Of a DNA stretch of 64,000 nt, positions 3,271 to 42,316 are shown one piece after another. Location of the stretch: contig CAVWMZ010000003.1 in assembly GCA_963756225.1 (NCBI GenBank), positions 275,988-339,987 of the forward strand, read 5' to 3'. Below the pieces are notes generated by a model. That model saw only the letters and a program-made list of their open reading frames with translations, was not told where the DNA came from and did no database searches. The translations under genes were made by a program, and so were the position numbers. Origin of the DNA: Candidatus Staskawiczbacteria bacterium (GTDB taxonomy: Bacteria; Patescibacteriota; Minisyncoccia; Minisyncoccales; Staskawiczbacteraceae). Numbering within the stretch: the stretch's first letter is position 1; every line of letters starts with the position of its first letter.

Positions 3271-3343
3271 GCCCTCATAGCTCAGCTGGTAGAGCAGTTG
3301 CCTCTTAAGCAATTGGTCACAGGTTCGAATCCTGTTGAGGGCA
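3271..3343 (+). tRNA. tRNA-Lys (anticodon CTT)
   Basis: Canonical cloverleaf. Acceptor GCCCTCA/TGAGGGC. D arm GCTC-AGCTGGTA-GAGC. Anticodon loop CTCTTAA. T arm ACAGG-TTCGAAT-CCTGT. Confidence 0.9.
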
Positions 3344-3354
3344 CACTTCGCCTC

Positions 3355-5228: not shown

Positions 5229-5943
5229 TAGAATATTATGTTAAGGGCGACGAAGATTTTCGCGGAGGCATGATTTGTAGATTTATAGTTAATCCAAAGC
5301 TTCCAATTTTTACTTTTAAGTTTATTGGCCAAGAGGATAACACTTTCGGAGACTTACAAATTACTGAAGGGAATAACCCAAATATAATTCAAGCTATTGG
5401 CAGTGGCATTGATCCAAACGCTATTGCACCAGCTACTGCTCAAGATGTTCTCGGACTTCCTGATATGAACTTTGATGGGTATAATGATTTATCTATTTTA
5501 AATAACTGCGGAGCTACTGGTAACTGCAACTATGACATATGGTTGTATAATCCTCAAAAAAATATATTTGTTGAAAATGATGATTTATCTAATGTAACGA
5601 ACCCAACGCCCGACCCGACTGCAAAAACAATCTCGTCGACTTATAATTGGGGCGCGAGCGGATACGAACAGGACACGTATAAATTTGACGCAAATGAAAA
5701 ATTATTTTTAACGAATGCATACAGACAAGAGGCCGTAGGAGATGGCTCGTCCTGCAAAGAAACTACTAGCGATTTGGTTAATGGAAAAATGATGACAACA
5801 ACAAAAATTGTTGATTGCACAAACTAATAATTTTAAAAAAATAAATAATCCGCAAAGCTAAGAATATACGGCTATACGAAAGCGCTGGAGAAATCCAACT
5901 TTTTGGCATATTCGTACTCATTCAAATCTCTGCGGACAAATAA

Positions 5944-10089: not shown

Positions 10090-10099
10090 CAAAAAACAT

Positions 10100-10460
10100 A
10101 TGGATAAAAAAATAATCGACAAGTTAAAAGTAAAATTAGAAGAAGAAAAAAAATCAATTCAAGAAGAATTGAGAAGTTTTGCGACTGAAGATCCAAATTT
10201 AAAGCACAATTGGGATACAAAATATCCCAACAGAGAAGATGATGACAAAGACGAGGCAGCAGACGACCTCCAAGAATACGACAACAAGCTTGTCTTTGGA
10301 ATATAGTTTTGAATTAAAACTTAAAGATATAAATATGGCTTTAGAGAAGATAGAAAAAGGAACGTATGGAATCTGTGAAAAATGCGGTAAAAAAATTGAT
10401 GAAGAAAGGCTAGTTGCCTGCCCCGAAGCAAAGACTTGTCTAAAATGCAACTCTAAATAA
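10100..10460 (+). CDS. DksA/TraR-type C4 zinc-finger protein, apparent frameshift near 10285-10300
   Basis: The N-terminal part (10100-10306) and the C-terminal part (frame of 10239-10460) together give …LQEYDNKL/SLEYSFELKLKDINMALEKIEKGTYGICEKCGKKIDEERLVACPEAKTCLKC. This is the DksA/TraR C-terminal zinc ribbon. Confidence 0.6.
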
Positions 10461-10485
10461 TAACCTACTTATTAATATTTTTTTA

Positions 10486-10515
10486 AAAACCGGACCTAGT
10501 TTCGGTTTTTTATTT
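10486..10515 (+). terminator. Rho-independent terminator after the DksA-like gene
   Basis: AAAACCG-loop-CGGTTTT followed by a T-run. Confidence 0.5.
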
Positions 10516-10520
10516 TTCTA

Positions 10521-10549
10521 TTGACAATAATAAAGCGATATTGTAATTT
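10521..10549 (+). promoter_or_regulatory. Sigma70-like promoter in front of the high-GC islet
   Basis: TTGACA (10521-10526), a 17-nt spacer, then TAATTT (10544-10549). Confidence 0.4.
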
Positions 10550-10613
10550 ATAGTATCGCCTGCTATTTAACAATTTCGTGAACCAACAGCCAACAGAAAG
10601 CGAGGATAAGACT

Positions 10614-10910
10614 ATGGAAACGACAGAAAGAAAGATTGCAGCCGCCGGAAATATCCCGAATAAGCCTTGCGTATATCTGTTCAGCGAACCAGACAAAGAA
10701 ATCCTCCGAGGAGACGGCACGGGACTCGTGCGTAGCGGGACCTTGCGACTTCTTTTGGAGAAAAATTTTGGAAAGGACGTGTTAGATGGCGGAAACCGGT
10801 TCAGCGAACCAGACAAAGAAATCCTCCGAGGAGACGGCACGGGACTCGTGCGTAGCGGGACCTTGCGACTTCTTTTGGAGAAAAATTTTGGAAAGGACGT
10901 GTTAAAATGA
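10614..10910 (+). CDS. Hypothetical protein containing an exact tandem 40-aa repeat
   Basis: ATG at 10614 is preceded by GAGGA. The product contains FSEPDKEILRGDGTGLVRSGTLRLLLEKNFGKDVL twice. The strand choice is uncertain because an antisense ORF (10496-10840) also exists. Confidence 0.4.
   Translation: METTERKIAAAGNIPNKPCVYLFSEPDKEILRGDGTGLVRSGTLRLLLEKNFGKDVLDGGNRFSEPDKEILRGDGTGLVRSGTLRLLLEKNFGKDVLK
10679..10904 (+). repeat. Perfect 106-bp direct repeat, two copies, 120-bp period
   Basis: 10679-10784 and 10799-10904 are identical base for base by visual alignment of lines 10681-10784 and 10801-10904. Confidence 0.9.
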
Positions 10911-11006
10911 ACACAAAACTAATAAGACAGTTTTACGTAGACGTTATCTGTCCCATACCCGTAATTCCATTTATTTTTCTCAACTTCTTTTTACCCCCGC
11001 AAATTT

Positions 11007-11333
11007 ATGCGCACAGAAACGACAATGCCCCAAGAGCATCTTGATAAAAAGGTCAACGAATTCGGTGCATATCTTGATGCCGAGCTGGCGGTACTAGATG
11101 CTGCAAAAAACTATCAGACCGCCCATCGACTCATCAACGAGTTACAAACGAGGGCAACGCGATTCATAGATGCGGAAATGCTCTCGCTCGATGGGCAAAG
11201 AGAGGACTACCTCAAGAGTATAGTATCTGTCGTACAGCGAGCGGATGAATATTCCGCGCGAGATGACTCCCTGCCACAGGAAATTGGTGCGAGATTACAA
11301 GGCCTATCAAGGCACATTCTCACATTAATGTAG
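11007..11333 (+). CDS. Hypothetical protein (high-GC islet)
   Basis: 108-aa ORF with much higher G+C than its surroundings. No family recognised. Confidence 0.4.
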   Translation: MRTETTMPQEHLDKKVNEFGAYLDAELAVLDAAKNYQTAHRLINELQTRATRFIDAEMLSLDGQREDYLKSIVSVVQRADEYSARDDSLPQEIGARLQGLSRHILTLM

Positions 11334-11417
11334 GGATTTACGTTCGGGCCCGTGATACGTCGTGGGCCTTTTTTATTTACAAAAAAATTTGGTATAATAA
11401 ATAAAATAAAGTATTAT

Positions 11418-12947
11418 ATGCCTTCAAAAGTTTTCTCTGGAGCTATAAATGGATTGGACGCGCAATTAGTAGAGGTGGAAATAGATGTATCGCAAGGATT
11501 GCGCTCATTTTCTATTGTAGGTTTGCCCGATAAGGCGGTAAAAGAATCAGAAGAGAGGGTTGATTCGGCAATAAAAAGCACAAAATTATTATCACCTCAT
11601 AGCAGAACTTTTAAAGTTTTAGTAAATCTAGCCCCAGCTGACTTAAAAAAAGAAGGCTCTATTTATGATCTGCCAATTGCTTTGGCTTTTTTAATTGCAT
11701 CAAAACAAACTATTTTTAATGTTTCTGATAAAATATTTATAGGCGAACTTTCTTTAGATGGGAAATTGCGCCCGATAAAAGGCGCGCTATCTTTTGCTCT
11801 AATGGCAAAAAAGCTAGGCGTTAAAGAAATTATTTTGCCAAAACAAAATGCAAAAGAGGCCAGCCTAATAAAAGAGGTAAAGGTTGTAGGCATAAATTCG
11901 CTATCAGAAGCTTTGGCTTATTTAGAACACAGAATACAAATTCAGGGAACAGAATTTAGAGAAGATACTATTTTAAACTCCTCCAATCAGGCATCAGAAC
12001 AGATTGATATCAGTTGGGTGAAAGGGCAAGAATATGCAAAAAGAGCACTCGAGATTACAGCTGCTGGCAGCCATAATCTTTTTATGTTTGGACCTCCTGG
12101 CGGAGGAAAAAGCCTGTTAGCGAAAGCGTTGCCTTCTATCCTGCCAAAACTAAATTTTGCAGAATCTTTAGAGGTTACAAAAATTTACAGTATCGCTGGT
12201 CTTCTGCCAGAAAATACGGCTATTATAAATTTTAGACCATTTCGTTCTCCCCACCACATTTCTTCTGAAGTTGCTCTAATCGGTGGAGGAAGTCCGCCAA
12301 GACCCGGAGAAATAACATTAGCCCATCGTGGAGTTCTATTTTTAGATGAGTTCCCAGAATTTCATAGAGATGTTTTAGAATCTTTGCGTCAGCCGATTGA
12401 AGAGGGGAAAATAACTGTCTCGAGGGCAAAAAATACTTTTACCTTTCCTTCACGATTTATGCTTATAGCAGCGTCAAACCCATGTCCTTGCGGATATTTT
12501 AACGATCCAGAAAAAAACTGCACCTGCTCACCTTCTCAGGTTTCGATGTATAGAAGAAAAATGTCAGGACCCTTAATGGACAGAATTGATTTATTTATTG
12601 AAGTACCAGCAGTAAAATATGAAAAGCTAACTTCCGACTCTGTTGAAAACCAAAGTCAAAACGTTAGGGGAAAAATTGAAAAAGCCCGAGAAAAGCAAAA
12701 GGCCAGATTTATCAACGGCAATATTTTAACAAACTCTGAAATGAACATTCCTGAAATAAAAAAATACTGCGAACACGATGATAAATCACAAAACCTTTTG
12801 AAGAAATACGTTGACTCAGGGAAATTATCAGCCAGAGGATATCACAGAATTTTAAAAGTAGCCCGAACAATTGCCGACCTAGCCGATTCTGACAAAATTC
12901 AATATGAACATATTGCCGAAGCGCTGATGTATCGGGTTAGGGAGTAA
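11418..12947 (+). CDS. comM: YifB/ComM family Mg-chelatase-like AAA ATPase
   Basis: N-terminal Lon-like domain (VEVEIDVSQGLRSFSIVGLPDKAVKESEERV), Walker A GPPGGGKS, and VLFLDEFPEF…MDRIDL…, typical of the family. A TGGTATAAT extended -10 lies at 11390-11398. Confidence 0.85.
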   Translation: MPSKVFSGAINGLDAQLVEVEIDVSQGLRSFSIVGLPDKAVKESEERVDSAIKSTKLLSPHSRTFKVLVNLAPADLKKEGSIYDLPIALAFLIASKQTIFNVSDKIFIGELSLDGKLRPIKGALSFALMAKKLGVKEIILPKQNAKEASLIKEVKVVGINSLSEALAYLEHRIQIQGTEFREDTILNSSNQASEQIDISWVKGQEYAKRALEITAAGSHNLFMFGPPGGGKSLLAKALPSILPKLNFAESLEVTKIYSIAGLLPENTAIINFRPFRSPHHISSEVALIGGGSPPRPGEITLAHRGVLFLDEFPEFHRDVLESLRQPIEEGKITVSRAKNTFTFPSRFMLIAASNPCPCGYFNDPEKNCTCSPSQVSMYRRKMSGPLMDRIDLFIEVPAVKYEKLTSDSVENQSQNVRGKIEKAREKQKARFINGNILTNSEMNIPEIKKYCEHDDKSQNLLKKYVDSGKLSARGYHRILKVARTIADLADSDKIQYEHIAEALMYRVRE

Positions 12948-14258: not shown

Positions 14259-15008
14259 CTATTTCCTAGTAAAGGACATCTTGGGAAGCGGCATAGAAAA
14301 AACCTGATTTTGTTGCGGCTCCACAATAGGCGCGGTTGATTCCAGGAATCTATTCTGCGAGACGGTGCGAGGCACAACTACATTAGGCGATGCTACTATG
14401 GGCGCTTCCTTGCGTTGCACCGCGATAAGCGCAAGCGCTGATTTTTTTAGCCCAACAAACTGAGCTCCATTCCACACCGATCCATTGTCTAACGACACCC
14501 AAGTGTCCGGTATCTTTTTGTCTCTAACGCAATATTTCATCGTAACGCGCCAAAGCGGGTTTGCGCTGTCTCTGTTTTGTATTTTAATTGCCACTATAAG
14601 GATGCCATCATATTCTTTGACGCTGTCAAAGGTCCACGGAGAGAATGACTCTGTTTCTCCCAGCCATTTCAAGTGAGCCGGAATTCCAAACACCCGATCC
14701 AAGGGATCCATAATGCAATAATTATATCTTTCACCAAATTCATCCCCCGAGTCGGAATAATTAAAATTCTCGATAACCGGATCTCCGGTAATGATAATCT
14801 GAAATGGCAAATTTGGATCTGCGTGCCTGTAACAACCACAACCAAACCAATGGGAAAAATAAACTCCGCTAAACGCGGCACCATTGGACAAAAATTTCCG
14901 CACACCTTGCATAATATCGTCTCTATAGGTGACAAGCTTGTCTTCCTGTTTCTGTTTTTCCAATTCTACGGCATGCTGTTCAACCTTCCTCTGCCAGCTG
15001 AACTGCAC
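14259..15008 (-). CDS. Hypothetical protein (high-GC islet)
   Basis: 249-aa ORF with a GTG start that overlaps the upstream lipoprotein gene by 29 nt. No family recognised. Confidence 0.45.
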   Translation of the reverse strand: MQFSWQRKVEQHAVELEKQKQEDKLVTYRDDIMQGVRKFLSNGAAFSGVYFSHWFGCGCYRHADPNLPFQIIITGDPVIENFNYSDSGDEFGERYNYCIMDPLDRVFGIPAHLKWLGETESFSPWTFDSVKEYDGILIVAIKIQNRDSANPLWRVTMKYCVRDKKIPDTWVSLDNGSVWNGAQFVGLKKSALALIAVQRKEAPIVASPNVVVPRTVSQNRFLESTAPIVEPQQNQVFSMPLPKMSFTRK

Positions 15009-15444
15009 GTTGCCGAGCCTGTTCCGCTTCTTGAGCGGCGTGTTCTTTGTCGCGATATTCTTTCAACCGCTCGGGCAATAGATATACCTCCTTCGTATCA
15101 GACTGGCGTATGCCTTCTGGCAAAATATCGTAATAAGACACCGAGGTCTCCATGCCCCTCCTAACAATTCTCAGCCTATTATCATCCCTCGTATATTCCT
15201 CAAGGCGGATTTCGGAGTTCATCTTGAACTCACATTCAGTTTCTGATATCAATGTTATAGTAAATCCATATTTTGGGTTGGTAAAAACGACTTTCTGAAA
15301 AACGTTCTTTTTCTCGGGAATAGCCTGGAGGGCATTCTCTTTCTCTGAAATAGGGGGCACTGATCCGCTCCGACTACAAGAAACAAAAAAACAAACCGCG
15401 GCACCAAACATCAACAAGCATGCTTTTCTGCAATATCTCTTCAT
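14980..15444 (-). CDS. Putative lipoprotein (high-GC islet)
   Basis: MKRYCRKACLLMFGAAVCFFVSCSRSG is a signal peptide with a lipobox-like FVSC. The start is taken as the internal ATG at 15444. Confidence 0.5.
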   Translation of the reverse strand: MKRYCRKACLLMFGAAVCFFVSCSRSGSVPPISEKENALQAIPEKKNVFQKVVFTNPKYGFTITLISETECEFKMNSEIRLEEYTRDDNRLRIVRRGMETSVSYYDILPEGIRQSDTKEVYLLPERLKEYRDKEHAAQEAEQARQRAVQLAEEG

Positions 15445-15686
15445 GTCTTGCTCCTTTCTTAGAAACAAATTTTCAATGCTGAAAATGGCCTGCTAGCTGC
15501 ATGCCACATTATTCCCAGCGAACTAATTTAATTGTGCTACTCCGACACCATAATGTCAAGTCTTCGCCCCACAAATTTGAGTTTTTAATTAAAATTTAAT
15601 GTAATCGAAGCTCTACTATAAAAAATTTACCGCTGGGTAAAGACTTGAACTTATTACCAAATTTTAAACTATGCTATAATATTCTA

Positions 15687-17025: not shown

Positions 17026-17214
17026 ATGGGTGTTAATAACTTGACTAGCTTGAAATTTTTAAATGGTGTAAAATCAAGTAATTCAAAAGAACAAATCGTT
17101 GAATGGCTTTCAAAAAATAACTTAAATTCAAATCAACGGGCAGAAACCCTTAGTGTTTCTGATTGGATAAATTTAACAAAAAGCTTCTCAACTTTTAAAA
17201 AAATAAAAAAATGA
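17026..17214 (+). pseudogene. Relic of the 3' end of an rsmA gene
   Basis: …KEQIVEWLSKNNLNSNQRAETLSVSDWINLTKSF aligns with the C-terminus of the intact RsmA (…KKIDEWLLKNNLKSNQRAETLSTEDWKKLSENF). The nucleotide sequence is diverged, so this is not a recent local duplication. Confidence 0.6.
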
Positions 17215-19235
17215 TAAAATTCTCTCAACCTTTAAAGAATAAAAAATTATTATTTTTTGTTTTTTTATTTATTTTTATCTTCGCGGTGAAAATAAACTTT
17301 GCGCAAGCCGCCGATTGCCCTAGTGGTGACAGTTGCTACTGCATGGAAAACACCTGTTTCCCATATTCAAACGCAGCAATAGCCATAGGAGGAAATCCTG
17401 TAGGAATCCCGTGTTTAAGAGACGTCGATTGTGCACCTTCTCCGACTGGCGATTGCCCTGGTGTCGATAACCTAAGCTACGGCAAGCAGGTTGCAGTGTC
17501 TCTCATAGACGCAGTAGCAGCATTTCCCAATTACATCGCCAAAACCGCCGGATCGCTTGCTTCTATTGGCATGGGCACCGTACTAACTTATCCAATAACA
17601 AATCCAAGCTCAGGATCCGGCCCTATTTCTACATCGGGAGCAACAGCTTTTGTGGCTGGCTGGAAATCAATGAGAGATTTGGCTAATATGCTTGTTGCTT
17701 TAGGTTTTGTTATTATTGGTATAGCAACCGCTCTAAGAATTAGAGAATACGAAGCCGGGAAAGCCCTTATGCCATTAATAATAGTAGCTATTTTAATCAA
17801 TTTTTCTTTATTATTCTGCGGGTTAATTATTGACGCCTCAAACGTGACAATGAACGGATTATTGGGGGGCGGGAGCACAGTAACTACAAGCGGATTTACT
17901 GCGCCATCTATGGGTACGGCCCTATATCAGGCCACGTTGAGCGGAGAATATTCATGGAAATGCCAAGCAGTATCCGCCGAAAGCGTAAGCGGCTATGCTC
18001 TTGTAGTTGTTGCTTATTCGTTTTTATACATGGTAATAGCGTTTGCCTTTTTATATCTTTTTCTTGTGATTCTAGCTAGATATGCCGTTCTTGGAATTCT
18101 ATTTATGCTTTCTCCACTTGGATTTATTTTTTGGGCATTTCCATTCCCGGGAGCAAAAGAACTGGGACAAAAATGGTGGAATCATTTCTTAAAATGGTCG
18201 TTTGTCGGCGTAAGCATGTGCCTTTTCCTTAACTTGGCCCTAGGGATATTAAACAACACCCCATCACTTAATGGCACCCAAACGCCAACCGTAGAAACGG
18301 TGATAGAACCCCTTTTCATTGTTATAATGGTAATTGTAGTGGGAATATACATTAGCGCCAAATCAAACGGAATAGCGTCAATGGCCAGTAAGGCAGTGAT
18401 AGGGGTGGCGACTGGCGGAGCTGCACTTGCGGGGGGAGCAATCGTCGCAGGAGCCGCAGGGGGCTCAAAGATGTTAAATAAAATGACCGGAGGAAAAGTG
18501 GCCGATGCTGGCAGACGAATTAGTAACGCAACCGGACGAGTTTTAGCAAAAGTTGGCCTAGCGGATAGGGAGGCGGTTGATGCAAAAGCTTCAGCGCCAC
18601 TTCAAGAAGCGAAAAAAGCAATGAGCGGCGCAAGCAAAGAAACGTTGACTTCACATGCCCAGGGCAAGGGAATTGGTGTCACCGAACAAAAAAGAGTAGC
18701 TTCAATAGAGGCCATGATTCAAAAAGGCGATATTGGCGACATAGGAGACACCGCGGCGCAACATGCTGCCGTTTCTCGGGTTGAAAATTATCACAAAACT
18801 ATGGGAACGAGTGCCGATTTTAATGTCAGAAAAACCGCAGAAGATCAAAACTATAAGTTAGCTGGCTTCAACGAGGCGAACGTGACAAAATTAAGATCAA
18901 GTCAGCCCGGACTCACAGATGCTGCTGCCAAAGACAAACTAGTCCAAACAAAGCTTGATGAAACATTGCCAGCAATGACCCACACCCAACTTAGAAATAT
19001 TGATGCACCACATCTTACCTCTGAACGAGTAAGCAGATTAACTCCAGAAAAACTTAGCGCATTTAGAACTGGCTCCAAAGACCAGATTGACCAGATCCAG
19101 GGACCAGATGTTAGGGGAAAAATGGATTCTGAACGCATAAATCTTGAGACAGATAAGCATGCTGGACAGAGGATAGATGAGGCCAAACTCTCAAAACTAA
19201 ACAACCAAGTCAAAGAGATAGATAACCTAGCATAA
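17211..19235 (+). CDS. VirB6/TrbL-like polytopic membrane protein (putative T4SS channel component)
   Basis: 674 aa. It has a signal peptide, a Cys-rich N-terminal segment, about 6-8 hydrophobic helices, a Gly/Ala-rich segment and a hydrophilic C-terminal tail. The call rests on architecture and on context next to VirB3-like and VirB4 genes. Confidence 0.45.
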   Translation: MIKFSQPLKNKKLLFFVFLFIFIFAVKINFAQAADCPSGDSCYCMENTCFPYSNAAIAIGGNPVGIPCLRDVDCAPSPTGDCPGVDNLSYGKQVAVSLIDAVAAFPNYIAKTAGSLASIGMGTVLTYPITNPSSGSGPISTSGATAFVAGWKSMRDLANMLVALGFVIIGIATALRIREYEAGKALMPLIIVAILINFSLLFCGLIIDASNVTMNGLLGGGSTVTTSGFTAPSMGTALYQATLSGEYSWKCQAVSAESVSGYALVVVAYSFLYMVIAFAFLYLFLVILARYAVLGILFMLSPLGFIFWAFPFPGAKELGQKWWNHFLKWSFVGVSMCLFLNLALGILNNTPSLNGTQTPTVETVIEPLFIVIMVIVVGIYISAKSNGIASMASKAVIGVATGGAALAGGAIVAGAAGGSKMLNKMTGGKVADAGRRISNATGRVLAKVGLADREAVDAKASAPLQEAKKAMSGASKETLTSHAQGKGIGVTEQKRVASIEAMIQKGDIGDIGDTAAQHAAVSRVENYHKTMGTSADFNVRKTAEDQNYKLAGFNEANVTKLRSSQPGLTDAAAKDKLVQTKLDETLPAMTHTQLRNIDAPHLTSERVSRLTPEKLSAFRTGSKDQIDQIQGPDVRGKMDSERINLETDKHAGQRIDEAKLSKLNNQVKEIDNLA

Positions 19236-19262
19236 TTAATAGTTATTAATTACTATAAAATC

Positions 19263-19880
19263 ATGGACGAACAAAATAATTTAAGAGTTATCTTCACAAA
19301 AAAAGCCGACGCAGTTCTTGCGGGCATTATGAATAAATATAATTTGGAAGAAAACGACGAGCAAACTAGCAAAAAAGTTTTAGAAAAAAAACCATTTAAT
19401 GTAACGACATTAAATCATCTTGCAAAAAAATTTGTAAGAGAAAATATGTCTAAGATTGATTTATCTAATTCACTACAAAAGGAAATAGAGCTCCCGCAAC
19501 AAACAGCAGATAAAGTATCTGACGAAATTATAACGACACTAATCCCATTATTAGAAAAAGCTCCTGAAGAAAAATTTAATGATCCGACCTTTAGAGAAGA
19601 AATATCTAAAAAAGTTACCGGAGAATCAGAGCCGCAAGAAAATAAAAATATTTTCTATAAGGTTGAACCCGCTACAAGCGTTGACGAAATAATTAAAAAA
19701 AATATTCTAGCCGCAACCGAAGAACCGAAAATTGCAGAACCTACAAAAATAGAGACTGCAACGCCTCCCAAAAAAAGAGAACGGATAAAAAAAATAATCA
19801 CTCCAGCGGAAGCTAAAGAGTCTAACCAACAAACAAATCAGACTAAAGGCTCAGATAGATATAGGGAGCCTATTGAGTAA
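19263..19880 (+). CDS. Hypothetical charged protein
   Basis: 205-aa ORF. No family recognised. Confidence 0.4.
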   Translation: MDEQNNLRVIFTKKADAVLAGIMNKYNLEENDEQTSKKVLEKKPFNVTTLNHLAKKFVRENMSKIDLSNSLQKEIELPQQTADKVSDEIITTLIPLLEKAPEEKFNDPTFREEISKKVTGESEPQENKNIFYKVEPATSVDEIIKKNILAATEEPKIAEPTKIETATPPKKRERIKKIITPAEAKESNQQTNQTKGSDRYREPIE

Positions 19881-19897
19881 AAAATTTACAAAAAAAA

Positions 19898-19934
19898 GGG
19901 GGTGGCTTCAGCAAACGCCGAAGCCACCCTTTTA
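19898..19934 (-). terminator. GC-rich terminator belonging to the high-GC SPFH-like gene
   Basis: The minus strand reads GGGTGGCTTC-ggcgtttgct-GAAGCCACCC followed by CCTTTTTTTT. Confidence 0.7.
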
Positions 19935-19951
19935 CTTACATTGACTGATAA

Positions 19952-21184
19952 CTAGGTGGACTCACCTTTATGTCTTTCCAACCAACTGGGTGAAGGTTGG
20001 CCTCCCGAAGCCTCTCCCTCCTGACCACCAACAGGTTTAGCGCCTGAGCCTTGCCCCCGACCGCCACGACCACCTTGTTTACCTCTGCCGCGCCCTAACG
20101 CGCCACCTATAACCTCGGCTCCGCCGAGAATGGCCGCATAATTAGGATCTATGGGCTTTCCACCGCTGCTGATGTCCAGTTCTTGTTTGGAGTAATTACC
20201 CCCAGCCAAGCCCTGAGCCCGCAGCAGTTCAAGCGACTGTTCTTTGCGATCGTAGGCGCCACTCTTTTTAAGAGCTTTAACGGCCACTTTTTCAGTTACC
20301 CCCAAACGCGCAGCCTCATCTTTAACCCATTGATCCATCATGATCTTGACTGGACCACCGAGCCGAGCAGCTTCAGCTTGAGCCAGCAAATCTGCTTCGC
20401 TTTTTGCTTTTAAGGCGGCCGTATATGCCGAGTCTTCGCTGATCTTTAGGATTACGATGGAGTTTGTCTGGATTTCCATTCCCCATCGCTCCGTGATGCC
20501 GTCGAATATAGGCGCTGCTGATGGCGTATCGTTTTCTTGGACAAGCTCGTTCCACAGCCTTACGCCGTCGCCCCTGGCTTCCTGGGCGTGTTGCCGAAAA
20601 CCGCATTTTATCCATGCCCGCAAAACCGCATCCAGCCTGTCTATTGTTTGTCTTGCTACATCGCGAGGCGAGATATACAAGTAGTGAATCGGATTAACGA
20701 CCCGTCTTGTCACCTTCGCCACAACATCCAGATTAACGTTCTCAGGATCCTTGGTTTGCGCCCCGGTACAAATTAAATCCGACGTTACATCGTTGAGCTG
20801 AACCAGTACCCCTCCACCGAATCCATCGGTCGGGTCATTGTGACTTTCATACTTAGCCGGACTAACCAATGGCCAAAGGTAAAAAATCCAGCCACCAATC
20901 CTCCAGATACACCAGCATCCACCGATATTAATCGGCCGATTTTCCTTAGGATTGATGGTGTCGTCACAGCAAATAAATCCGGACATGTCGGGCCTGAAGT
21001 GATAACCCGTGAATTCCAGGGCAGTGTAAACCCGTTTTCCCAAGTATTTAAACGATGCTGCCGTTGCCTCCTGCACAATCACAATCCGCAAGATGCCGAA
21101 AGCCCAAGCGATAATTGCGAGAACCGGTATGGCCACTACAATCCCAATCAACCAATACAACGTAAACATTTCAAAGTCGTTCAT
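19952..21184 (-). CDS. SPFH/band-7-like membrane protein with a Gly/Arg-rich tail (high-GC islet)
   Basis: 410 aa. N-terminal TM helix, then IVQEATAASFKYLG…, later …AEADLLAQAEAARLGG…, and a GRGRGKQGGRGGRGQGSG tail. The resemblance to prohibitin-type SPFH domains is by pattern only. Confidence 0.4.
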   Translation of the reverse strand: MNDFEMFTLYWLIGIVVAIPVLAIIAWAFGILRIVIVQEATAASFKYLGKRVYTALEFTGYHFRPDMSGFICCDDTINPKENRPINIGGCWCIWRIGGWIFYLWPLVSPAKYESHNDPTDGFGGGVLVQLNDVTSDLICTGAQTKDPENVNLDVVAKVTRRVVNPIHYLYISPRDVARQTIDRLDAVLRAWIKCGFRQHAQEARGDGVRLWNELVQENDTPSAAPIFDGITERWGMEIQTNSIVILKISEDSAYTAALKAKSEADLLAQAEAARLGGPVKIMMDQWVKDEAARLGVTEKVAVKALKKSGAYDRKEQSLELLRAQGLAGGNYSKQELDISSGGKPIDPNYAAILGGAEVIGGALGRGRGKQGGRGGRGQGSGAKPVGGQEGEASGGQPSPSWLERHKGEST

Positions 21185-21378
21185 GGCGATTCCTTTCTTT
21201 TTGAATTATTTAATCAATTAACGGCCGGCACGGGAAACTTCCCACACCTATTAAGCTGTCTTTTTCAATGTTCTATAGTGCTTTAATTATATCATATTAA
21301 AATCATATTGTCAATATGTTGAGAACTTTTATTGCCTTTGATTTTTTATACATGATATAATGAACGAATCTTAAATTT

Positions 21379-21787
21379 ATGGAACAATATCCTATACCAC
21401 AATTTATTGAATCTGAGAGCAAGATTGCCTTCTTTATATCCTTTAGACAATTCTTTTATCTTGTGGGAGCTGGTGTTATTTGCTTTTTCATATATTGGAT
21501 TATGCCTCGTTTTCTTTTTTATATAGTAGCTTTTATAATTTTCCTCATAGCAGTAATTCTTGCTTTCGGAACTATCGGTGGCACCCCTATATTAAACTGG
21601 CTTATGGGAGGCAATAGGCTTCTCCTTAGACGGCAAAGATTATACATGGAAAAAGAAAGAATCTCCCTATCCGTTTAAGCCAATAAAAAGAACCCAAATA
21701 AAAAAAATAGACCAAGGACCCGTCTTACAAGCACAAACAAGCCAATTAAAGAAAACAAGGACGCTCGTAGAATTAAAAACAAAATAA
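21379..21787 (+). CDS. PrgI/VirB3-like small membrane protein, apparent +1 frameshift around 21596-21660
   Basis: MEQYPIPQFIESESKIAFFISFRQFFYLVGAGVICFFIYWIMP… is the typical PrgI-family start. The alternative frame continues …AIGFSLDGKDYTWKKKESPYPFKPIKRTQIKKIDQGP… to a stop at 21785-21787, 9 nt before the next gene. Confidence 0.5.
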
Positions 21788-21796
21788 TCTAAAATT

Positions 21797-22457
21797 ATGG
21801 CAGAATCAGCTACACAAGCATTTTTAGAAGTACAAGATATAAGAGAGGGGGTTTTACTTTTAAAAAATAATTCTATAAGAGGAATTTTAATGACCTCTTC
21901 TATAAATTTTGCATTGAAATCGGAAGAAGAACAAACGGCTATAATTTATGCTTTTCAAAATTTTCTAAATTCTTTAGATTTTTTCTGCCAAATTGTTGTT
22001 CAGTCCAGGAATATAAACATAACCCCATATTTAGACAGTTTAAAAGATTTAGAAGACAAGCAAACTAATGAACTCTTAAAAAGACAGACTACGTCATACA
22101 GAGAGTTTATAAAAGAAATGGTTGTAGGAGATGTAGTTATGACAAAAAGTTTTTACATAGTTGTACCATATAACCTAATGGAAATTTTTGGACTGAAGGG
22201 TGCCCAAAAGAAAATAAACTTTGGAGAGGCCCCTGGAGTAAAAAACAACAAACCAATAACTGATGATGAATTCCAAAGATGTAAATCGCAATTATGGCAA
22301 AGAATGGAGTATGTATCAATGGGCCTAAGAAGATGCGGGCTGGAAGCAGTGCCGCTTAACAACGCCCGAACTTATAGAACTTTTTTGGTCCATACACCAT
22401 CCAGATCAAGCAGAAATTGGATATTATCCAGAAATACTTCCCGAGTTATTAAAATAA
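21797..22457 (+). CDS. T4SS-associated protein of unknown function, apparent frameshift at CCC 22364-22367
   Basis: N-terminus QAFLEVQDIREGVLLLKNNSIRGILMTSSINFALKSEEEQTAIIYAFQNFLNSL… resembles the start of Gram-positive conjugation ATPase partners. After the shift the frame reads …LNNAELIELFWSIHHPDQAEIGYYPEILPELLK and stops at 22455-22457. Confidence 0.4.
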
Positions 22458-22469
22458 TTTTAAAACGTT

Positions 22470-24275
22470 ATGGCATTTCTAGACAATCTTCTTGGTAAAA
22501 AAGAAGAAGATCTAACACAAAAAATTTTTCAAGAAGAGGCGTTTGACGTGAGAGATATTATAGCCCCTCCATATATTGGCGTACTGCAAGATCATATAAA
22601 ATTAGGAGAAAGGCTTGCCAAGTCCTTCTTTGTTTTTTCTTATCCTAGATATTTAAATACGGGGTGGTTTTCACCCGTCATTGATTTAAATACTCCAATG
22701 GATATTTCATTTTTTATACATCCTGTCAGCAGCGAATTGATTTTAAAAAAATTAAGAAAAAAAGTTACAGAAGTTTCTTCCGAACTTTTAGAGAGAGAAG
22801 AAAAGGGATTAATTAGAGATCCTGCGCTAGAAACTGCATATAAAGATATTGAGAGCCTTAGAGATAATTTGATGACTGCTCAAGAAAAAATGTTTAGACT
22901 TGGTCTTTATATTACAATTTATGAAACTTCTGAAAAAGAATTAAAAGATACCGAACTTACATTAAGATCAATTTTTGAGTCTAGATTAATTTATATTAAA
23001 GCCGCTTTATTTAAACAAAAAGAAGGATTTATTTCTTGCAATCCTTATGGAATGGACTTAATAGAAGTCCACACTCCAATGGACACAGAGCCTTTGTCAA
23101 CATGTTTTCCATTTATTTGTTTTGATTTAAGCTCTAACGAAGGAATTTTATATGGGATAAATAGACACAATAATTCTTTAGTTTTATTTGACAGATTTAG
23201 TTTGGAAAATGCAAATATGGTGGTTTTCGCAAAATCTGGCGCAGGAAAATCATATGCCATAAAACTGGAAATTTTAAGATATTTGATGCAGGGAGTTGAT
23301 TGTATAATTGTTGACCCAGAAAACGAATATGAATTTTTAGCCGATGCAGTTGGCGGAGCATTCTTGAAAATTTCTTTAACTTCAGCAAACCATGTAAATC
23401 CTTTTGATTTGCCGCTGCCCGGCCCAGACGACAACCCAGAAGATATTTTAAGATCTAATGTTATAAACTTAGTTGGGCTTTTAAGAATTATGTTGGGAGG
23501 GTTAACTCCTGAAGAAGATAGCATTTTAGACGAAGCCCTAACAGAAACTTATGCAATAAGAGATATAACTGCGCAAACAGATCCCAAAACATGGGCGACC
23601 AACACTCCCTTAATGTCTGACTTTGAAGAAGTTTTAGAAAGTATGACGGGAACAGAGTCTCTGGGTAAACGTATTAAAAAATTTACCAAAGGAACTTTTT
23701 CTGATTTCTTCAACCAACAATCTAATATTTCAATGGATAAAAATCTAGTTGTTTTTGGGATAAGAGACATGGAAGAATCGCTAAGACCAATCGCACTATA
23801 TATCATCATGAGATATATATGGAATATTGTTAGAGAGAAATTAAAAAAGAGAATTTTGGTTATTGATGAAGCCTGGTGGCTAATGCAATCTCCAGACGGA
23901 GCTTCCTTTCTTTACGGTATAGTTAAAAGGGGTAGAAAATATTGGCTGGGAGTTACAACTATTACCCAGGATGTAGCCGACTTTATGAAATCAGATTATG
24001 GCAAAGCAATTGTCACAAACTCTTCATTGCAACTTTTAATGAAACAGTCTACTGCCGACATCGATTCTGTGCAAAAAGTATTTCAACTAACCGAGCAAGA
24101 AAAATATTTATTACTGGGAGCGGCAGTTGGAGAGGGGTTATTTTTTGCCGGAAGAAAACACGTGTACCTATCGGTTGTTGGCAGCCAAACAGAGAACCAA
24201 ATAATTACAACAAATCCTCAAGAAGTTCTGCAAAACAAAGCGGAAAAACAAAAACTAGAATCTGCCCAAAATTAA
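22470..24275 (+). CDS. virB4: VirB4/TraC-family type IV secretion ATPase
   Basis: 601 aa. The N-terminal VirB4 domain reads …YPRYLNTGWFSPVIDL…DISFFIHP…. Walker A is AKSGAGKSY, followed by …IIVDPENEY… and a Walker B-like ILVIDEAWW. Confidence 0.8.
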   Translation: MAFLDNLLGKKEEDLTQKIFQEEAFDVRDIIAPPYIGVLQDHIKLGERLAKSFFVFSYPRYLNTGWFSPVIDLNTPMDISFFIHPVSSELILKKLRKKVTEVSSELLEREEKGLIRDPALETAYKDIESLRDNLMTAQEKMFRLGLYITIYETSEKELKDTELTLRSIFESRLIYIKAALFKQKEGFISCNPYGMDLIEVHTPMDTEPLSTCFPFICFDLSSNEGILYGINRHNNSLVLFDRFSLENANMVVFAKSGAGKSYAIKLEILRYLMQGVDCIIVDPENEYEFLADAVGGAFLKISLTSANHVNPFDLPLPGPDDNPEDILRSNVINLVGLLRIMLGGLTPEEDSILDEALTETYAIRDITAQTDPKTWATNTPLMSDFEEVLESMTGTESLGKRIKKFTKGTFSDFFNQQSNISMDKNLVVFGIRDMEESLRPIALYIIMRYIWNIVREKLKKRILVIDEAWWLMQSPDGASFLYGIVKRGRKYWLGVTTITQDVADFMKSDYGKAIVTNSSLQLLMKQSTADIDSVQKVFQLTEQEKYLLLGAAVGEGLFFAGRKHVYLSVVGSQTENQIITTNPQEVLQNKAEKQKLESAQN

Positions 24276-24308: not shown

Positions 24309-27300
24309 ATGGCCTTTTGGAAAAAACTTATTTTCTTTTTTCCTGCTTGCTGCGTCGCTTTTCTAAGCGCTAGTTTTGTTTTAGCCCTTGAAGTAAATCT
24401 TCCAGGCTTAGGAGGAAACCCCGACATTGGCACATATATTTGTTATCTTTTTAGCAAGGGAGTAAGTATAGCCGTTTCTATAGCTGTTGTAGCGGTAGCC
24501 GTTGGCGGAGTTTATTATCTGGTCTCCTATGGAAGTGGAAAAATTACGAACGAAGGGAAAGAATGGATAAAGGCAGGAATAACCGGGCTCTTAATAATTG
24601 TCTGCTCAACTTTGATTATGCAGACAATCAGTCCGAAGTTAGGTAGCTGCAAAATTGGCGTCCTACCACAACTTAATTTAAATCCTCTGCCCAGCAATAC
24701 CCCATTGCCCTCATATGTAACCGTCAACACATATAAAGAAATCCCTATTGGCACATTAACTGAAACACTTTTAGCAAGAACAATAAATTGTTATGGTTTT
24801 GACCAAAGTGGGAACCCTATTAACGGCGACTTTTTAGAAACAGCTAAAAGTTGCTCGGTAGACACAGATTGTGGCATAGGCAGCGGCGAAACGTGCAATC
24901 ATAAAACCAATAAATGCGATGATCCCTCGCCCACCTATATGAACCACGACAGGGCAGACTGCCTAACACAATTAGTTACGGGTGCCCAAGAAAAAGCTAA
25001 TGTCATTTCTGCTCTATCGGACCAAATAGCCAGCCTGATGAATACGTGCGATTGCGCTACATATGGAGATTGCAAGCCTCATTGTAACCCTATTACGGGT
25101 TGCGTTCTTAATGGTACAAGTCCTGATGGCTCAGGAAAAACCTCTGGGCTAGGAACTGATTGCACCGGGTCATGCACTGGAGGCGGTGATTCAACGGGCT
25201 CGTGTGTTAATGGCTCATGTCTAGAGGCTCCAAATCAAACCCCGCCAGATTGTTGCCCCACAACCGCCAGTGACACAATAACAAACACCCCCATCTCCGG
25301 GCTAACAACAAAACAACAAATTGAGCATGGGCCAGTTAATGTTGCTGCTAATGTTGGCGCAAGCGGAGGCGGGACAGCGGAAGCTCCGTCGGCATGCAAA
25401 TGCCCAGCATCATACGGTGGAGGATACAGTCCCGGATGCTGCTCGTTAACTGGAGTTTCAGGCTCAACCACAACCCCAACAGCATGCCCGTGTACTAGCG
25501 GCCCCTATGCGGGCGGCTATGATTCTAGCTGCTGCACAACCACAGATGATAGCTGTAAAACTACTGCCACTGAATATCACGGGCTAGATGAATTTAGGTG
25601 TAACCCAAACCCGATTAATGGTGATTTTCAACCTTGCGACGCTGCTTCAATAAAAAATTTTGTTGAAGAAAATGTACAAATAAATGGCGAGACAGTTGTC
25701 GCAATTAACCCAGACAATTGGAAAAAAATAAATTTATTACAGCAGTTAACCTATCTAAAACAAAAAATAGACGATGTTAAAGAAACAATGAGGGAGGATG
25801 AAACCAATCTAGATAAAGCAAGATATATGTTGGCATCTCCGCAATGCTATTTAGCGATACCCTATGTCGATCTCGTTGACACTTATGAGAATACAGACCA
25901 AACACATACAGTTGTTTTACCTGTAAAAGTTTTTAATGACCCTACCGTTACTACTACGCCCCCGCAGCCCGTAGATTCGTCAAAATATTGCAATGGATTT
26001 AATTATAATAATTCGAGTTGTTTAAAACAATGCGATGATGCATGCCCAGACTCAAGTCCTCTGGCCATGCAATCATACAATGCGTGCGGAGCTTGCGACA
26101 CCACTATTTTAAGTGGAGCAGCGCTACAGACCTGTGAAGACACACAAGAAAAATGCATAGAGAAGGCTTACACCTCAAGACCATGCATATATGCTCAAGA
26201 TACCAGCCAAACTTTTAAAGATTGTATTGGCTCTTGTCAGGATAACTGTGAATATGGTTGCAACCAAAAATATGCCGCGTGCTCTGATGCAAATAGTTTT
26301 TGCCAATCTCAGTGTGGCGATACAACTCAAGGTAATTCAAGTTGTGTTTTGGGTCACGCCGACGAGTGCCTGTTTGGAGCCAGTAATTTTGTAGACTGCA
26401 CAAATGCAAATAAGGCCACCGACCAAGGCAATACCAATTATTGCATCCAAAATGCATATATGTGCAAGAATGGATCTAACGAATATTCTGGATATCCTGA
26501 CTGTGTTATCCAAAATTCAAATTGTTCGAACTACACAGATCCGATAAGCTGCCAAAATGCCCCACAATCAGAGTGTATGTGGGATAATGCAGGATTTTGC
26601 ACCCAAACCGATTATTCATCTTATCTGTATAATTACCCGAATTCACAAAAATGCGCATATCCGGATATTCCTGCTACAAGCGGCCCGTGCACAAGTAGTT
26701 CCAGCCCCGATGCCACTTGCCAGGCCGTATGCCCAGAAACAACAAAATGCACCTCAGATTCGAGTTGTCCTTTGTGCCCATGCGATATTTTAAATGCTTC
26801 TCTTAATTTCCCTGTACCAAATACGTCTGTGCCTTATAAAAGTAGCCCCGGCTTTAATGCCGGAGATGAGGGCGTTAATAATAACCAACAAAAAGTTTCG
26901 TCGGATTTAATGACCGGACCGCAATGTGACCAATATAATTATAATGATGACCCATTAACTTTTTATTGTGAAGATAATTGGTGGAATGCGCCAGACAAAG
27001 AGGAGAATGGGAGCACGCCTGGAGGGCCTGGGGGCCCCGGAAATGCCACTGGCCCAGCAGGAACGGGTACTGGATCGTTGATACCAATAGGACAAGAAAA
27101 AATTTGCCCCGCAGAAAACGAAATACCAATCGGACAAACAATTGACGATGCGAAAAAATGGGCTAATAATATAATAACTTCAATAGGCAGCATAGATCAA
27201 GATATACAGGTGATAATTAACCAAATAACTACAATGGGGAAAGCAAAGGACACAAGCCCCGTACAAAATTACTGTAAATGTGATGCGAAATATGAGAATA

Positions 27301-27827
27301 CCAACCCAATTTGCCAAACTAATTGCAATTATAAACAATGGTACGTTTCAGATGGGAATGGAGGATATGAACCTGCTTGTAATTGCACCTTTGTCCCATG
27401 CCAAGGACAACCATGTCAACAGATGATTAACTATCATTCACAGCTTTGGAATGATTATCAAAGTTTTGAAAATGACTATATAAGTTTTTATACTGATGTG
27501 CTATATGACCAGAGGAGTGATATATTTAAAAAATTAACTTATTCGCGACAAACAACAAACAGCTGCAGCTCAACAAATACTATTTATGGAGGAGAGCAAG
27601 ACAGGCTACTAAGCTGCACTAGGGCCGAAGACGAATTACTCACTCCTATTACCGGAGGTAAAATAAGTTTCGATAATAAAACTTGGCCCAATTATTGCTA
27701 TGGGCAACAATTGGGCAACGTTGCTAATGCACCCCTAACAGATAATTGGTTTTGTTGCCAAGAGTACACCAAAACCCCAACGATAAATAATAATCCTATT
27801 TATAATATACAAAAAAATAATTTTTAA
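24309..27827 (+). CDS. Giant (1172 aa) cysteine-dense secreted protein with an N-terminal pilin-like two-helix module
   Basis: Signal peptide, then TM1 (VSIAVSIAVVAVAVGGVYYLV), the loop SYGSGKITNEGKEW, and TM2 ending IMQTISPKL. About 1050 aa follow, full of CxC/CxxC spacings, with an internal repeat CKCPASYGGGYSPGCC / CPCTSGPYAGGYDSSCC and a GGPGGPGNATGPAGTGTG linker. Confidence 0.6.
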   Translation: MAFWKKLIFFFPACCVAFLSASFVLALEVNLPGLGGNPDIGTYICYLFSKGVSIAVSIAVVAVAVGGVYYLVSYGSGKITNEGKEWIKAGITGLLIIVCSTLIMQTISPKLGSCKIGVLPQLNLNPLPSNTPLPSYVTVNTYKEIPIGTLTETLLARTINCYGFDQSGNPINGDFLETAKSCSVDTDCGIGSGETCNHKTNKCDDPSPTYMNHDRADCLTQLVTGAQEKANVISALSDQIASLMNTCDCATYGDCKPHCNPITGCVLNGTSPDGSGKTSGLGTDCTGSCTGGGDSTGSCVNGSCLEAPNQTPPDCCPTTASDTITNTPISGLTTKQQIEHGPVNVAANVGASGGGTAEAPSACKCPASYGGGYSPGCCSLTGVSGSTTTPTACPCTSGPYAGGYDSSCCTTTDDSCKTTATEYHGLDEFRCNPNPINGDFQPCDAASIKNFVEENVQINGETVVAINPDNWKKINLLQQLTYLKQKIDDVKETMREDETNLDKARYMLASPQCYLAIPYVDLVDTYENTDQTHTVVLPVKVFNDPTVTTTPPQPVDSSKYCNGFNYNNSSCLKQCDDACPDSSPLAMQSYNACGACDTTILSGAALQTCEDTQEKCIEKAYTSRPCIYAQDTSQTFKDCIGSCQDNCEYGCNQKYAACSDANSFCQSQCGDTTQGNSSCVLGHADECLFGASNFVDCTNANKATDQGNTNYCIQNAYMCKNGSNEYSGYPDCVIQNSNCSNYTDPISCQNAPQSECMWDNAGFCTQTDYSSYLYNYPNSQKCAYPDIPATSGPCTSSSSPDATCQAVCPETTKCTSDSSCPLCPCDILNASLNFPVPNTSVPYKSSPGFNAGDEGVNNNQQKVSSDLMTGPQCDQYNYNDDPLTFYCEDNWWNAPDKEENGSTPGGPGGPGNATGPAGTGTGSLIPIGQEKICPAENEIPIGQTIDDAKKWANNIITSIGSIDQDIQVIINQITTMGKAKDTSPVQNYCKCDAKYENTNPICQTNCNYKQWYVSDGNGGYEPACNCTFVPCQGQPCQQMINYHSQLWNDYQSFENDYISFYTDVLYDQRSDIFKKLTYSRQTTNSCSSTNTIYGGEQDRLLSCTRAEDELLTPITGGKISFDNKTWPNYCYGQQLGNVANAPLTDNWFCCQEYTKTPTINNNPIYNIQKNNF

Positions 27828-42259: not shown

Positions 42260-42316
42260 GTTTTTTCATTTTAATTATTCCGACCTCATCAAGGTAATGG
42301 ATACTCCTATTAAAAG

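Follow-up and report, generated by a model that had tools for sequence, protein, structure and literature searches.

An apparently resident, divergent SPFH-family gene with persistently atypical codon usage in a type IV secretion-like locus of Patescibacteria

In the sole species tested, Patescibacteria's type IV secretion system (T4SS) is essential for epibiotic life, and the Patescibacterial locus encodes neither a relaxase nor a coupling protein and has pilins of a kind uncommon in monoderms (PMC10633639, PMC12102498, PMC12857230). The essential locus of Southlakia epibionticum ML1, the one Patescibacterium studied genetically and the sole source of Tn-seq data, runs from SEML1_0006 to SEML1_0019 (supplementary tables of PMC10633639), and the sole SPFH protein of this organism is an unlinked, distant slipin, SEML1_0609 (PMC10633639). 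The S. aureus (Staphylococcus aureus) flotillin FloA, an SPFH protein, promotes type VII secretion system (T7SS) assembly (PMC5718613), and the T4SS of Agrobacterium tumefaciens co-purifies with detergent-resistant membranes that bear SPFH markers (PMC8656257). No mention of SPFH, stomatin, flotillin or Band 7 was found in the main texts of PMC12102498, PMC10633639 and a 2025 T4SS nomenclature review, in a keyword-based comparison of limited scope that leaves room for an earlier mention elsewhere.

Here we describe a gene at positions 19952-21184 (minus strand) of a 64,000-nt stretch, hereafter the window, from Candidatus Staskawiczbacteria bacterium (assembly GCA_963756225.1, contig CAVWMZ010000003.1, positions 275,988 to 339,987), whose predicted product is a divergent SPFH (stomatin/HflKC/flotillin-fold) membrane protein and which lies in reverse orientation among the genes of a T4SS-like locus. 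The joint explanation that we judge best, and likely to be right, is that of a resident, divergent SPFH gene of the T4SS locus with a presumed scaffold role and a composition that has been maintained. A preliminary description of the window had placed a 410-aa antisense frame between the VirB6-like/hypothetical genes and the PrgI gene, all of which was correct, and had taken it for an inserted islet and possible passenger, an interpretation contradicted by a homolog at the same site and in the same orientation in 12 further loci. The gene divides the T4SS genes into two co-directional units, as had been noted, and is predicted to be a separate transcription unit with its own terminator. Its arrangement in the window is as follows:

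19952-21184, minus strand: coding sequence of the putative divergent SPFH membrane protein, 410 aa (open reading frame, profiles, AlphaFold (AF2) model, Foldseek)
17211-19880, plus strand: upstream convergent unit, VirB6/TrbL-like plus hypothetical
17211-19235, plus strand: VirB6/TrbL-like polytopic protein, 674 aa (open reading frame; homologs in other loci with PF19590 TrbL_3; BLAST)
19263-19880, plus strand: acidic hypothetical protein, 205 aa (open reading frame; BLAST matches across loci)
21379-24275, plus strand: downstream divergent unit, 65-91% identity between loci
21379-21678, plus strand: PrgI/VirB3-like protein (Pfam PrgI, 1.6e-08)
21797-22498, plus strand: TraC-like/TrsD-like protein (PF26593 TraC-like on homologs)
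22470-24275, plus strand: VirB4 ATPase (Pfam P-loop_TraG, 5.4e-27)

Homologs of the SPFH gene occupy the same slot on the opposite strand in 12 further independent loci (L001/L002, L003, L004/L005, L006, L007, L008, L010, L011, L012, L014, L015 and L017), which comprise every recovered locus showing flanks; close alignment had yielded one GTDB genome and six metagenome loci. The gene order runs from RrnaAD through VirB6/TrbL-like, a hypothetical protein (142-275 aa, in most loci), the reversed SPFH gene, PrgI and TraC-like to VirB4, with large pilin-domain proteins coming after VirB4. Homologs at this site are 25-55% identical, and the distant members L014, L015 and L017, which hold the same slot, share 25-33% identity with the window protein. 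The named relatives are Parcubacteria-type plus one Saccharibacteria metagenome-assembled genome (MAG), L015 being Parcubacteria bacterium DG_74_2 and L007 a GTDB MAG labelled Candidatus Saccharibacteria. As the arrangement recurs in independent assemblies (ENA, JGI, Logan, GTDB MAG), the assembly chimerism that the preliminary description had named as a hazard is excluded in practice. From these comparisons the gene appears to be a resident of a T4SS-like locus in a clade of the ultra-small Patescibacteria (candidate phyla radiation, CPR). The hypothetical gene at 19263-19880 (plus strand) has a conserved C-terminal end (...YREPIE* in the window), and the DNA around its stop codon is nearly identical across loci.

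That a foreign, G+C-rich SPFH gene landed recently and antisense in the operon, as a passenger, is highly improbable. Such an event would account for a G+C content and a third-codon-position G+C content (GC3) far above those of the neighbours, for a gene with its own promoter and terminator, and for a third-position profile like that of two atypical genes at 14259-15468, which relatives lack at that position; against it, homologs as low as 25-55% in identity share the site and the orientation in the 12 other loci, synonymous sites between them are saturated, their divergence tracks that of the flanking genes, and neither repeats, an integrase nor a tRNA flank the gene. A variant in which one mobile segment spread recently is excluded by the loci's divergence. 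The borders in the window show no insertion scars, only short AT-rich chance repeats, and no mobility gene or nearby tRNA. Relatives do carry a homolog at the position, albeit not one of host composition: it is G+C-rich there too, so the anomaly is a conserved property of the gene and not the mark of a recent arrival.

In related loci, genes for 23S_rRNA_IVP/bAvd-like four-helix-bundle proteins come and go around the SPFH and PrgI genes, and an IS200/IS605-type Y1 transposase lies next to the SPFH gene in L003 only. The position in the window has no IVP/bAvd-like or Y1 transposase gene. The genes concerned, each IVP/bAvd-like or Y1 transposase, are:

L003: 763-1122, 1641-2003 and 3489-3920
L004: 3305-3667
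L014: 12266-12622

The pairwise identity of the SPFH proteins follows that of the TraC-like proteins (Spearman 0.79, p 1e-10, 45 pairs) and of VirB4 (Spearman 0.64), which indicates that the SPFH gene has broadly diverged together with its locus. Between loci, identities reach 87-88% for VirB4, 73-86% for TraC-like, 43-55% for SPFH, 29-39% for VirB6-like and 25-34% for the hypothetical protein; the SPFH gene therefore ranks between the ATPase module, which changes more slowly, and the other upstream genes, which change more quickly. In the SPFH identity matrix, L007 appears nearer than one would expect.

The frame at 19952-21184 (minus strand) encodes 410 aa from an ATG start. In codon alignments against four homologs, identity falls from the second to the first to the third position (e.g. 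0.74/0.67/0.38), the third being lowest at 0.29-0.43, whereas non-synonymous divergence (dN) is 0.39-0.68 with a proportion of synonymous differences (pS) of 0.68-0.84, that is, saturated; in the flanking VirB4 and TraC-like genes pS is 0.52-0.75, near saturation for AT-rich sequence. This pattern, together with the dN values at saturated synonymous divergence, identifies a real protein-coding gene, and an old one. Its G+C content is 0.50-0.54 across 20001-21000 compared to about 0.32-0.37 on either flank, and in 100-nt steps the profile rises at 19900 and drops at 21200, matching the gene ends, with 0.48-0.65 within the gene, ~0.33-0.37 before it and 0.24-0.32 past 21200. The DNA encoding the C-terminal tail is the most G+C-rich stretch (0.65 in 20000-20099). 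Overall G+C content and GC3 are both 0.513, the latter being the window maximum (z = 4.3; mean of the other 49 window frames 0.313, sd 0.046). Much of what the preliminary description had read from the sequence is borne out: its count of 41 G/C in 20041-20100 is exact, the G+C content is far above that of the host (the GC3 z-score just given), the tail is indeed Gly/Arg-rich, with 22 G and 5 R among its last 75 positions, and the gene is followed by its own GC-rich terminator with a T-run (13-bp stem, T8).

A further local G+C peak of the window (0.52, 25001-25500) falls in a Gly/Ser/Thr/Cys-rich low-complexity stretch of a 1172-aa Cys-rich protein with a weak T4SS-pilin N-terminus (24309-27827, plus strand). 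Unlike the anomaly of the SPFH gene, this peak is driven by amino-acid composition.

In ten low-GC loci (the window, L001, L003, L004, L006, L008, L010, L011, L012 and L014) the SPFH gene has a GC3 of 0.38-0.56 compared to 0.12-0.38 in its neighbours, for instance 0.56 against 0.21-0.34 in L001, 0.46 against 0.15-0.24 in L014 and 0.38 against 0.12-0.21 in L011. GC3 exceeds that of the neighbours by 0.12-0.30 in every low-GC close relative, an excess that is evenly spread over the gene and confined within its ends. It persists in L014 at ~35% protein identity; in L015 (0.34 compared to 0.20-0.31), L016 and L017, the most distant members, it is weak. It consists mainly in the avoidance of A-ending codons: at four-fold sites the share of A is 0.205 compared to 0.35 while T is unchanged (0.33 and 0.34), and the codon shares in the SPFH gene and its neighbours are 0.47 and 0.86 for AAA, 0.59 and 0.81 for GAA, 0.15 and 0.64 for AGA, and 0.11 and 0.41 for TTA.

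Several candidate causes of the excess were considered and rejected. Strand-specific mutation bias, as predicted from mirrored neighbours, would give 0.34 for A and 0.17 for G; the observed values are 0.205 and 0.21. Amino-acid composition alone cannot be the cause, as GC3 itself is doubled. An overlapping antisense or alternative-frame gene is met by stops in all frames and all loci, and a structured RNA within the coding sequence by the absence of any Rfam match at gathering score. We accordingly give almost no credence to the proposal that the G+C content reflects a second function of the DNA or RNA, such as an overlapping antisense gene or a structured RNA inside the coding sequence, even if structured RNAs in AT-rich genomes classically stand out by their high G+C and the avoidance of A at third positions lowers the number of stops in one antisense frame. 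That antisense frame has 1-12 stops in close loci (in the window its longest open run is 136 codons), neither strand offers an alternative frame that stays open across loci, conservation is lowest at third positions, and the Rfam scan gave no family at gathering score within the coding sequence.

With synonymous sites saturated and the excess still present in L014, a single ancient transfer followed by amelioration should have left almost nothing, and the survival of the excess through saturating divergence indicates a composition that is maintained and not the residue of a recent transfer. The codon bias is most likely due to selection that acts on the mRNA or on how it is translated. Ribosomal-protein genes and other reference genes of high expression are absent from the window.

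The main rival on composition, which we hold to be very unlikely, is recurrent replacement in situ by alleles from a mid-G+C pool (other Patescibacteria, plasmids, phages), perhaps taking along the adjacent fast-evolving VirB6-like/hypothetical block, so that the composition never equilibrates. L007, the locus from a G+C-richer genome, lends it most weight. There the excess vanishes, the SPFH gene (GC3 0.52) matching its genome (about 0.55), while the adjacent hypothetical (0.23) and VirB6-like (0.35) genes are AT-rich, as if imported. Moreover, its SPFH protein is 43-56% identical to those of the low-GC clade, as close as those loci are to each other, when its TraC-like protein is more distant (62-74% compared to 73-92%). 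Patescibacteria are, besides, naturally competent (PMC10633639, as summarised in PMC12857230), and homologs of another GC3-rich gene of the window are again GC3-rich in different contexts. Replacement is, however, at odds with the overall co-divergence with TraC-like and VirB4, and with the host-like GC3 of the neighbouring, faster-evolving genes in the low-GC loci. No mid-GC donor was found, and full-length relatives with DNA sit in T4SS loci of low-GC contigs, L007 excepted. The L007 segment at 9163-12804, comprising the hypothetical, VirB6-like and a 183-aa gene, has a GC3 of 0.23-0.37 compared to ~0.55, an opposite anomaly that suggests import of the variable part of the T4SS from a low-GC relative.

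The SPFH gene shares its A-poor third-position profile with two further GC3-rich genes of the window:

14259-15008, minus strand: 249-aa protein, GC3 0.476, no Pfam match
14980-15468, minus strand: lipoprotein-like product (signal peptide plus Cys), GC3 0.460, no Pfam match

Both are absent between the LysM-M23 peptidase and RrnaAD genes of related loci. Homologs of the 249-aa protein with 44-48% identity lie in low-GC contigs other than this one (L018, L019), where the surroundings differ and they are again GC3-rich (0.45-0.49 compared to ~0.23-0.27 in clearly AT-rich neighbours). Hence there seems to be, in these genomes, a small class of genes whose codon usage stays persistently mid-G+C.

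The assignment of the protein to the SPFH family, which had been proposed from the sequence, was obtained through family profiles and a fold search; with the single protein, no Band_7 match was found. Among 5.8 billion proteins, five close homologs were detected at 42-52% identity. A profile of these six close sequences (A1), searched against 1.84 billion cluster representatives, retrieved 238 representatives, 56 of them with E < 1e-30. Pfam Band_7 is matched individually by 23 of the 32 closest members (E < 1e-67 to A1; best 1.3e-06) and by 66 of 98 wider members (best 7.6e-14), and the stomatin of P. horikoshii (Pyrococcus horikoshii, 3bk6) is matched by the 32-sequence profile at E 1.1e-4 and by the 98-sequence profile at E 1.2e-16, in an alignment that spans the SPFH domain and reaches into the beginning of the coiled coil. 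An AlphaFold model from the six-sequence alignment was unusable (predicted local distance difference test score (pLDDT) 41), whereas the 98-sequence alignment gave a model with pLDDT 86.4 and a predicted template modelling score (pTM) of 0.70. With this model, the first 42 places of a Foldseek search of the PDB were all taken by SPFH-type proteins, erlin included, or the major vault protein, and hits 1-18 were stomatin, HflC/K, flotillin, prohibitin and QmcA (E down to 9e-9, probability 1.0). Template modelling scores (TM-scores) normalised to isolated SPFH domains were 0.70-0.80 (4fvg, 8gn9, 4fvj), and alignments to full-length stomatin, HflC/K and QmcA chains extended over 340-350 columns. 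No match to a T4SS Pfam family was found, and the fold is not like VirB8/PrgL or another known T4SS subunit. Taken at family level, the profiles and the predicted structure support a divergent SPFH-family membrane protein, whose relatives are named 'hypothetical protein' in public records. Its predicted parts are encoded as follows:

21101-21181, minus strand: N-terminal transmembrane helix, residues ~2-28 (AF2 helix and hydrophobicity)
20435-21091, minus strand: SPFH alpha/beta domain, residues ~32-250 (3bk6 profile alignment; DSSP E32-E162 and H165-E250)
20204-20431, minus strand: long coiled-coil-type helices, residues 252-327 (AF2 H252-294, H298-308 and H310-327, pLDDT >90)
19955-20203, minus strand: disordered Gly/Arg-rich C-terminal tail, residues 328-410 (pLDDT <50 over 336-394)

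The protein has one hydrophobic peak (19-residue windows starting at residues 3-24) and no second, and the N-terminal anchor is kept in the 98 family members (mean hydropathy 2.65). Inside the SPFH domain is a family-specific Cys/Trp-rich insertion, G-x-CWCIWRIGGW-FY (residues ~88-102), with C90, W91, C92, R95, G97 and G98 as invariant columns in A1. The coiled-coil element forms the wall of the ring or cage in solved SPFH complexes. The last 75 residues contain 22 G, 7 S, 6 A, 5 P, 5 E and 5 R; some family members finish with a YP-x-WWDP-like motif, which the window protein does not have.

In the closer loci the SPFH gene is, judging by its sequence signals, a separate single-gene transcription unit with its own promoter, leader and terminator. 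The predicted signals in the window are:

21286-21314, minus strand: promoter of the SPFH gene, TTGACA-17-TATAAT, 12/12 matches, TG extension
21185-21285, minus strand: 5' leader, ~100 nt, with a structured element within
21217-21274, minus strand: structured element of the leader, GAACAUUG...ACAGCU, 8-bp covarying hairpin, GGCUGUUA
19890-19929, minus strand: intrinsic terminator, 13-bp stem, T8
21332-21361, plus strand: promoter of the PrgI-TraC-like-VirB4 unit, TTGCCT-18-TATAAT with TG, back to back with the SPFH promoter

An extended -10 promoter with 11-12/12 matches precedes the gene in ten further loci, lying 55-105 nt before the start codon in L001, L003, L004, L007, L008, L010, L011, L014 and L015. 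The promoter of L012 (TTGACA...TGCTATAAAT) is at 5739-5768, and in this locus only, an insertion of ~170 nt (5770-5945) parts the promoter from the conserved leader. On the other strand, reverse-complemented upstream sequences keep a TGnTATAAT element in L001, L003, L004, L010 and L011, and an inverted repeat, I2, joins the -10 regions of the SPFH and PrgI promoters. The first 17 nt of the SPFH gene (21168-21184, ATGAACGACTTTGAAAT) have an inverted copy with 82% identity just before the PrgI start (21360-21376), which opens a mini-ORF (open reading frame) of 4 codons (ATGAACGAATCTTAA); a duplication of the start region may have left this copy behind, or it may be due to chance.

The leader element has the order GAACAUUGUCAAA-ACAGCU, six nt, 8-bp hairpin, GGCUGUUA in the window and seven related loci, and an outer 6-bp helix, ACAGCU/GGCUGU, encloses the covarying 8-bp hairpin. 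RNAalifold gave 14 pairs, 8 of them showing compensatory change, and six pairs of the inner helix are altered on both sides. In the trimmed alignment 91.9% of cells are paired compared to 33-49% for slid controls, and the covariation score was reached by 0 of 500 shuffles. A covariance model of the leader found one position per locus and no other in 184 kb (71 bits in the window). No further copies, which would be the sign of a regulon, were found in the window and 13 other loci, the one additional hit (49863-49909, E 0.53) being at chance level, and no Rfam family matched the leader at gathering score (best rli28, with 37.9 bits where 45 is the cutoff). With no U-run behind it, and lying clear of the ribosome-binding site, the hairpin looks more like a binding or stabilising element than an attenuator.

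The terminator hairpin, GGGTGGCTTC...GAAGCCACCC at 19900-19929, has on the minus strand 9 G-C pairs and a loop of 4 nt, with CC-T8 after it. It folds at -27.5 kcal/mol (z = -5.1; 0/200 shuffles fold equally well), and in all of the 11 other loci examined the stop codon is followed by a strong hairpin and a T-run. Read on the plus strand the hairpin is followed by TTTTACTT, and it may also end the upstream VirB6-like/hypothetical unit.

By analogy with SPFH complexes of known structure, namely the stomatin 16-mer, the HflK/C cage, QmcA and flotillin, the most likely role that we infer for the protein is that of a ring scaffold for the T4SS membrane complex. Through its coiled coil (helices 252-327) it would oligomerise into a membrane-attached ring or cage, which would bound a microdomain and surround or arrange client membrane proteins; the clients, to go by linkage, would be VirB6-like, VirB3 and VirB4, the inner-membrane translocon that the ring might help to assemble, stabilise or gate. 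Of the two options that had been left open for the gene, passenger or recruit of the secretion apparatus, recruitment is the better and the passenger does not stand.

It is unlikely, in our estimation, that the gene is a conserved neighbour with an unrelated function, such as general membrane housekeeping in the manner of HflK/C, which control FtsH-type proteolysis. In keeping with that idea the gene is monocistronic, oppositely oriented and equipped with its own regulatory leader, the best-studied Patescibacterial T4SS works without an SPFH gene, and L016 has no visible T4SS neighbours. On the other hand, the exact placement in the T4SS locus holds down to 25-30% identity despite turnover of IVP, transposase and pilin genes, the intergenic region with PrgI carries paired divergent promoters, and long-lived linkage in streamlined genomes usually reflects function. 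Scans of 27 window proteins and the gene tables of related loci revealed no NfeD or FtsH domain.

Several observations weigh against a resident SPFH scaffold of the T4SS. The single window protein had no match in Pfam (E <= 0.1) or NCBIfam and no meaningful one in PHROGs, and a phmmer search of the PDB with it gave only Gly/Arg low-complexity matches to MRE11, so that what places it in the SPFH family is transitive profiles and a predicted structure. The tie to the T4SS, likewise, is the co-location of the genes, and the wider family member L016 has no recognisable T4SS neighbours. In S. epibionticum, PrgI (SEML1_0010) abuts the VirB6-like gene (SEML1_0011) with no SPFH gene between them (PMC10633639), which implies that the gene is not universally required for this type of T4SS. 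The A. tumefaciens T4SS is stated to associate with the detergent-resistant membranes independently of the SPFH proteins (PMC8656257). G-ending codons are enriched as much as C-ending ones, which is unusual for translational selection in AT-rich bacteria. Finally, K+R values of 0.8 before and 1.7 after the transmembrane helix favour a cytoplasmic SPFH domain through a positive-inside bias that is too weak to fix the topology; depending on that topology, and speculatively, the Gly/Arg tail may attach to nucleic acid or to the cell envelope.

A bolder version of the resident scaffold would combine a dedicated SPFH ring, hard-wired as an accessory into the T4SS of a large clade of Patescibacteria, with codon usage as a selected regulatory device, and we consider this combination quite unlikely. 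Were it true, no secretion system before this one would have had an SPFH scaffold of its own in genetic linkage. It would draw on at least one other gene family sharing the codon usage (14259-15008 and the L018 and L019 homologs), and the codon usage could tune or gate translation according to state, e.g. attachment to a host with host-derived RNA or tRNA. The codon usage of Patescibacteria has been argued to be 'complementary' to that of G+C-rich hosts (preprint 10.64898/2026.06.21.733656).

Elsewhere in the window, a probable integrated mobile element extends over 40444-48385, and an IS1595-family (ISXO2-like DDE) transposase gene at 4504-5190 (minus strand) lies near tRNA-Arg(UCG) (2708-2782) and tRNA-Lys(CUU) (3271-3344). 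The parts of the mobile element are:

40444-42099: large serine recombinase
43545-45164: DUF5906 primase-like gene
47606-47726: LOOT RNA, 67.7 bits, above gathering score
47786-48385: T5orf172/GIY-YIG-like gene

A conserved membrane-scaffold gene in such a locus would be a concrete new candidate for a T4SS subunit or assembly factor, and lineages with the gene and S. epibionticum without it offer a natural comparison. The codon usage, ~0.2 GC3 above the genome through saturating divergence and found likewise in a second, unrelated gene family, is a testable case of gene-specific composition that recent transfer does not explain, and it cautions against reading G+C 'islets' of these genomes as insertions. 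What is new is a divergent SPFH subfamily, set apart by its insertion and its tail and hard-wired into a secretion locus, with a conserved leader RNA and a codon anomaly; the SPFH gene family itself is ordinary, and the notable part is the fixed place in the T4SS together with the persistent composition.

Compared to stomatin/slipin-type proteins (PH1511, 3bk6; E. coli (Escherichia coli) QmcA, 8z5g), the predicted protein has in common the N-terminal anchor, the SPFH alpha/beta domain and the long helix. The best sequence-profile match is 3bk6 (E 1e-4 to 1e-16), and among the fold matches are human stomatin (9oh9, E 9e-9) and QmcA (8z5g, TMq 0.39 and TMt 0.55). It differs from stomatin and QmcA, with which it shares ~14-18% identity, by the extra CWCIWRIGGW segment in the N-terminal half of the domain, by a Gly/Arg-rich disordered tail instead of a compact C-terminal cap, by falling below the Pfam Band_7 threshold, and by the position of its gene, embedded in a T4SS locus with no adjacent NfeD gene. 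The predicted protein resembles HflK/HflC (7vhq, 7wi3, 9cz2) in its single N-terminal transmembrane helix, SPFH1/2 domain and two coiled-coil helices (full-length structural alignment of ~350 columns, E 1e-8 to 1e-6), whereas here there is one gene and not a paralogous pair, no ftsH in the neighbourhood and a different tail.

The flanks of the gene correspond to the described MPF-FATA-like T4SS set of Patescibacteria, namely VirB4, TrsD/TraC-like, VirB3/PrgI, VirB6-like and VirB2-like pilins (PMC12102498, PMC10633639), although the S. epibionticum locus, unlike the window, has no gene between PrgI and VirB6-like. A functional analogy may be drawn with FloA of S. aureus, an SPFH scaffold proposed to promote, in a monoderm, the assembly of a secretion complex of several membrane subunits (PMC5718613), and a flotillin, 9bq2, is among the fold matches (E 3e-7). 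Unlike FloA, which is encoded elsewhere in its genome and has many clients, and in this respect unlike FloA/FloT, the SPFH gene of the window lies inside the secretion locus.

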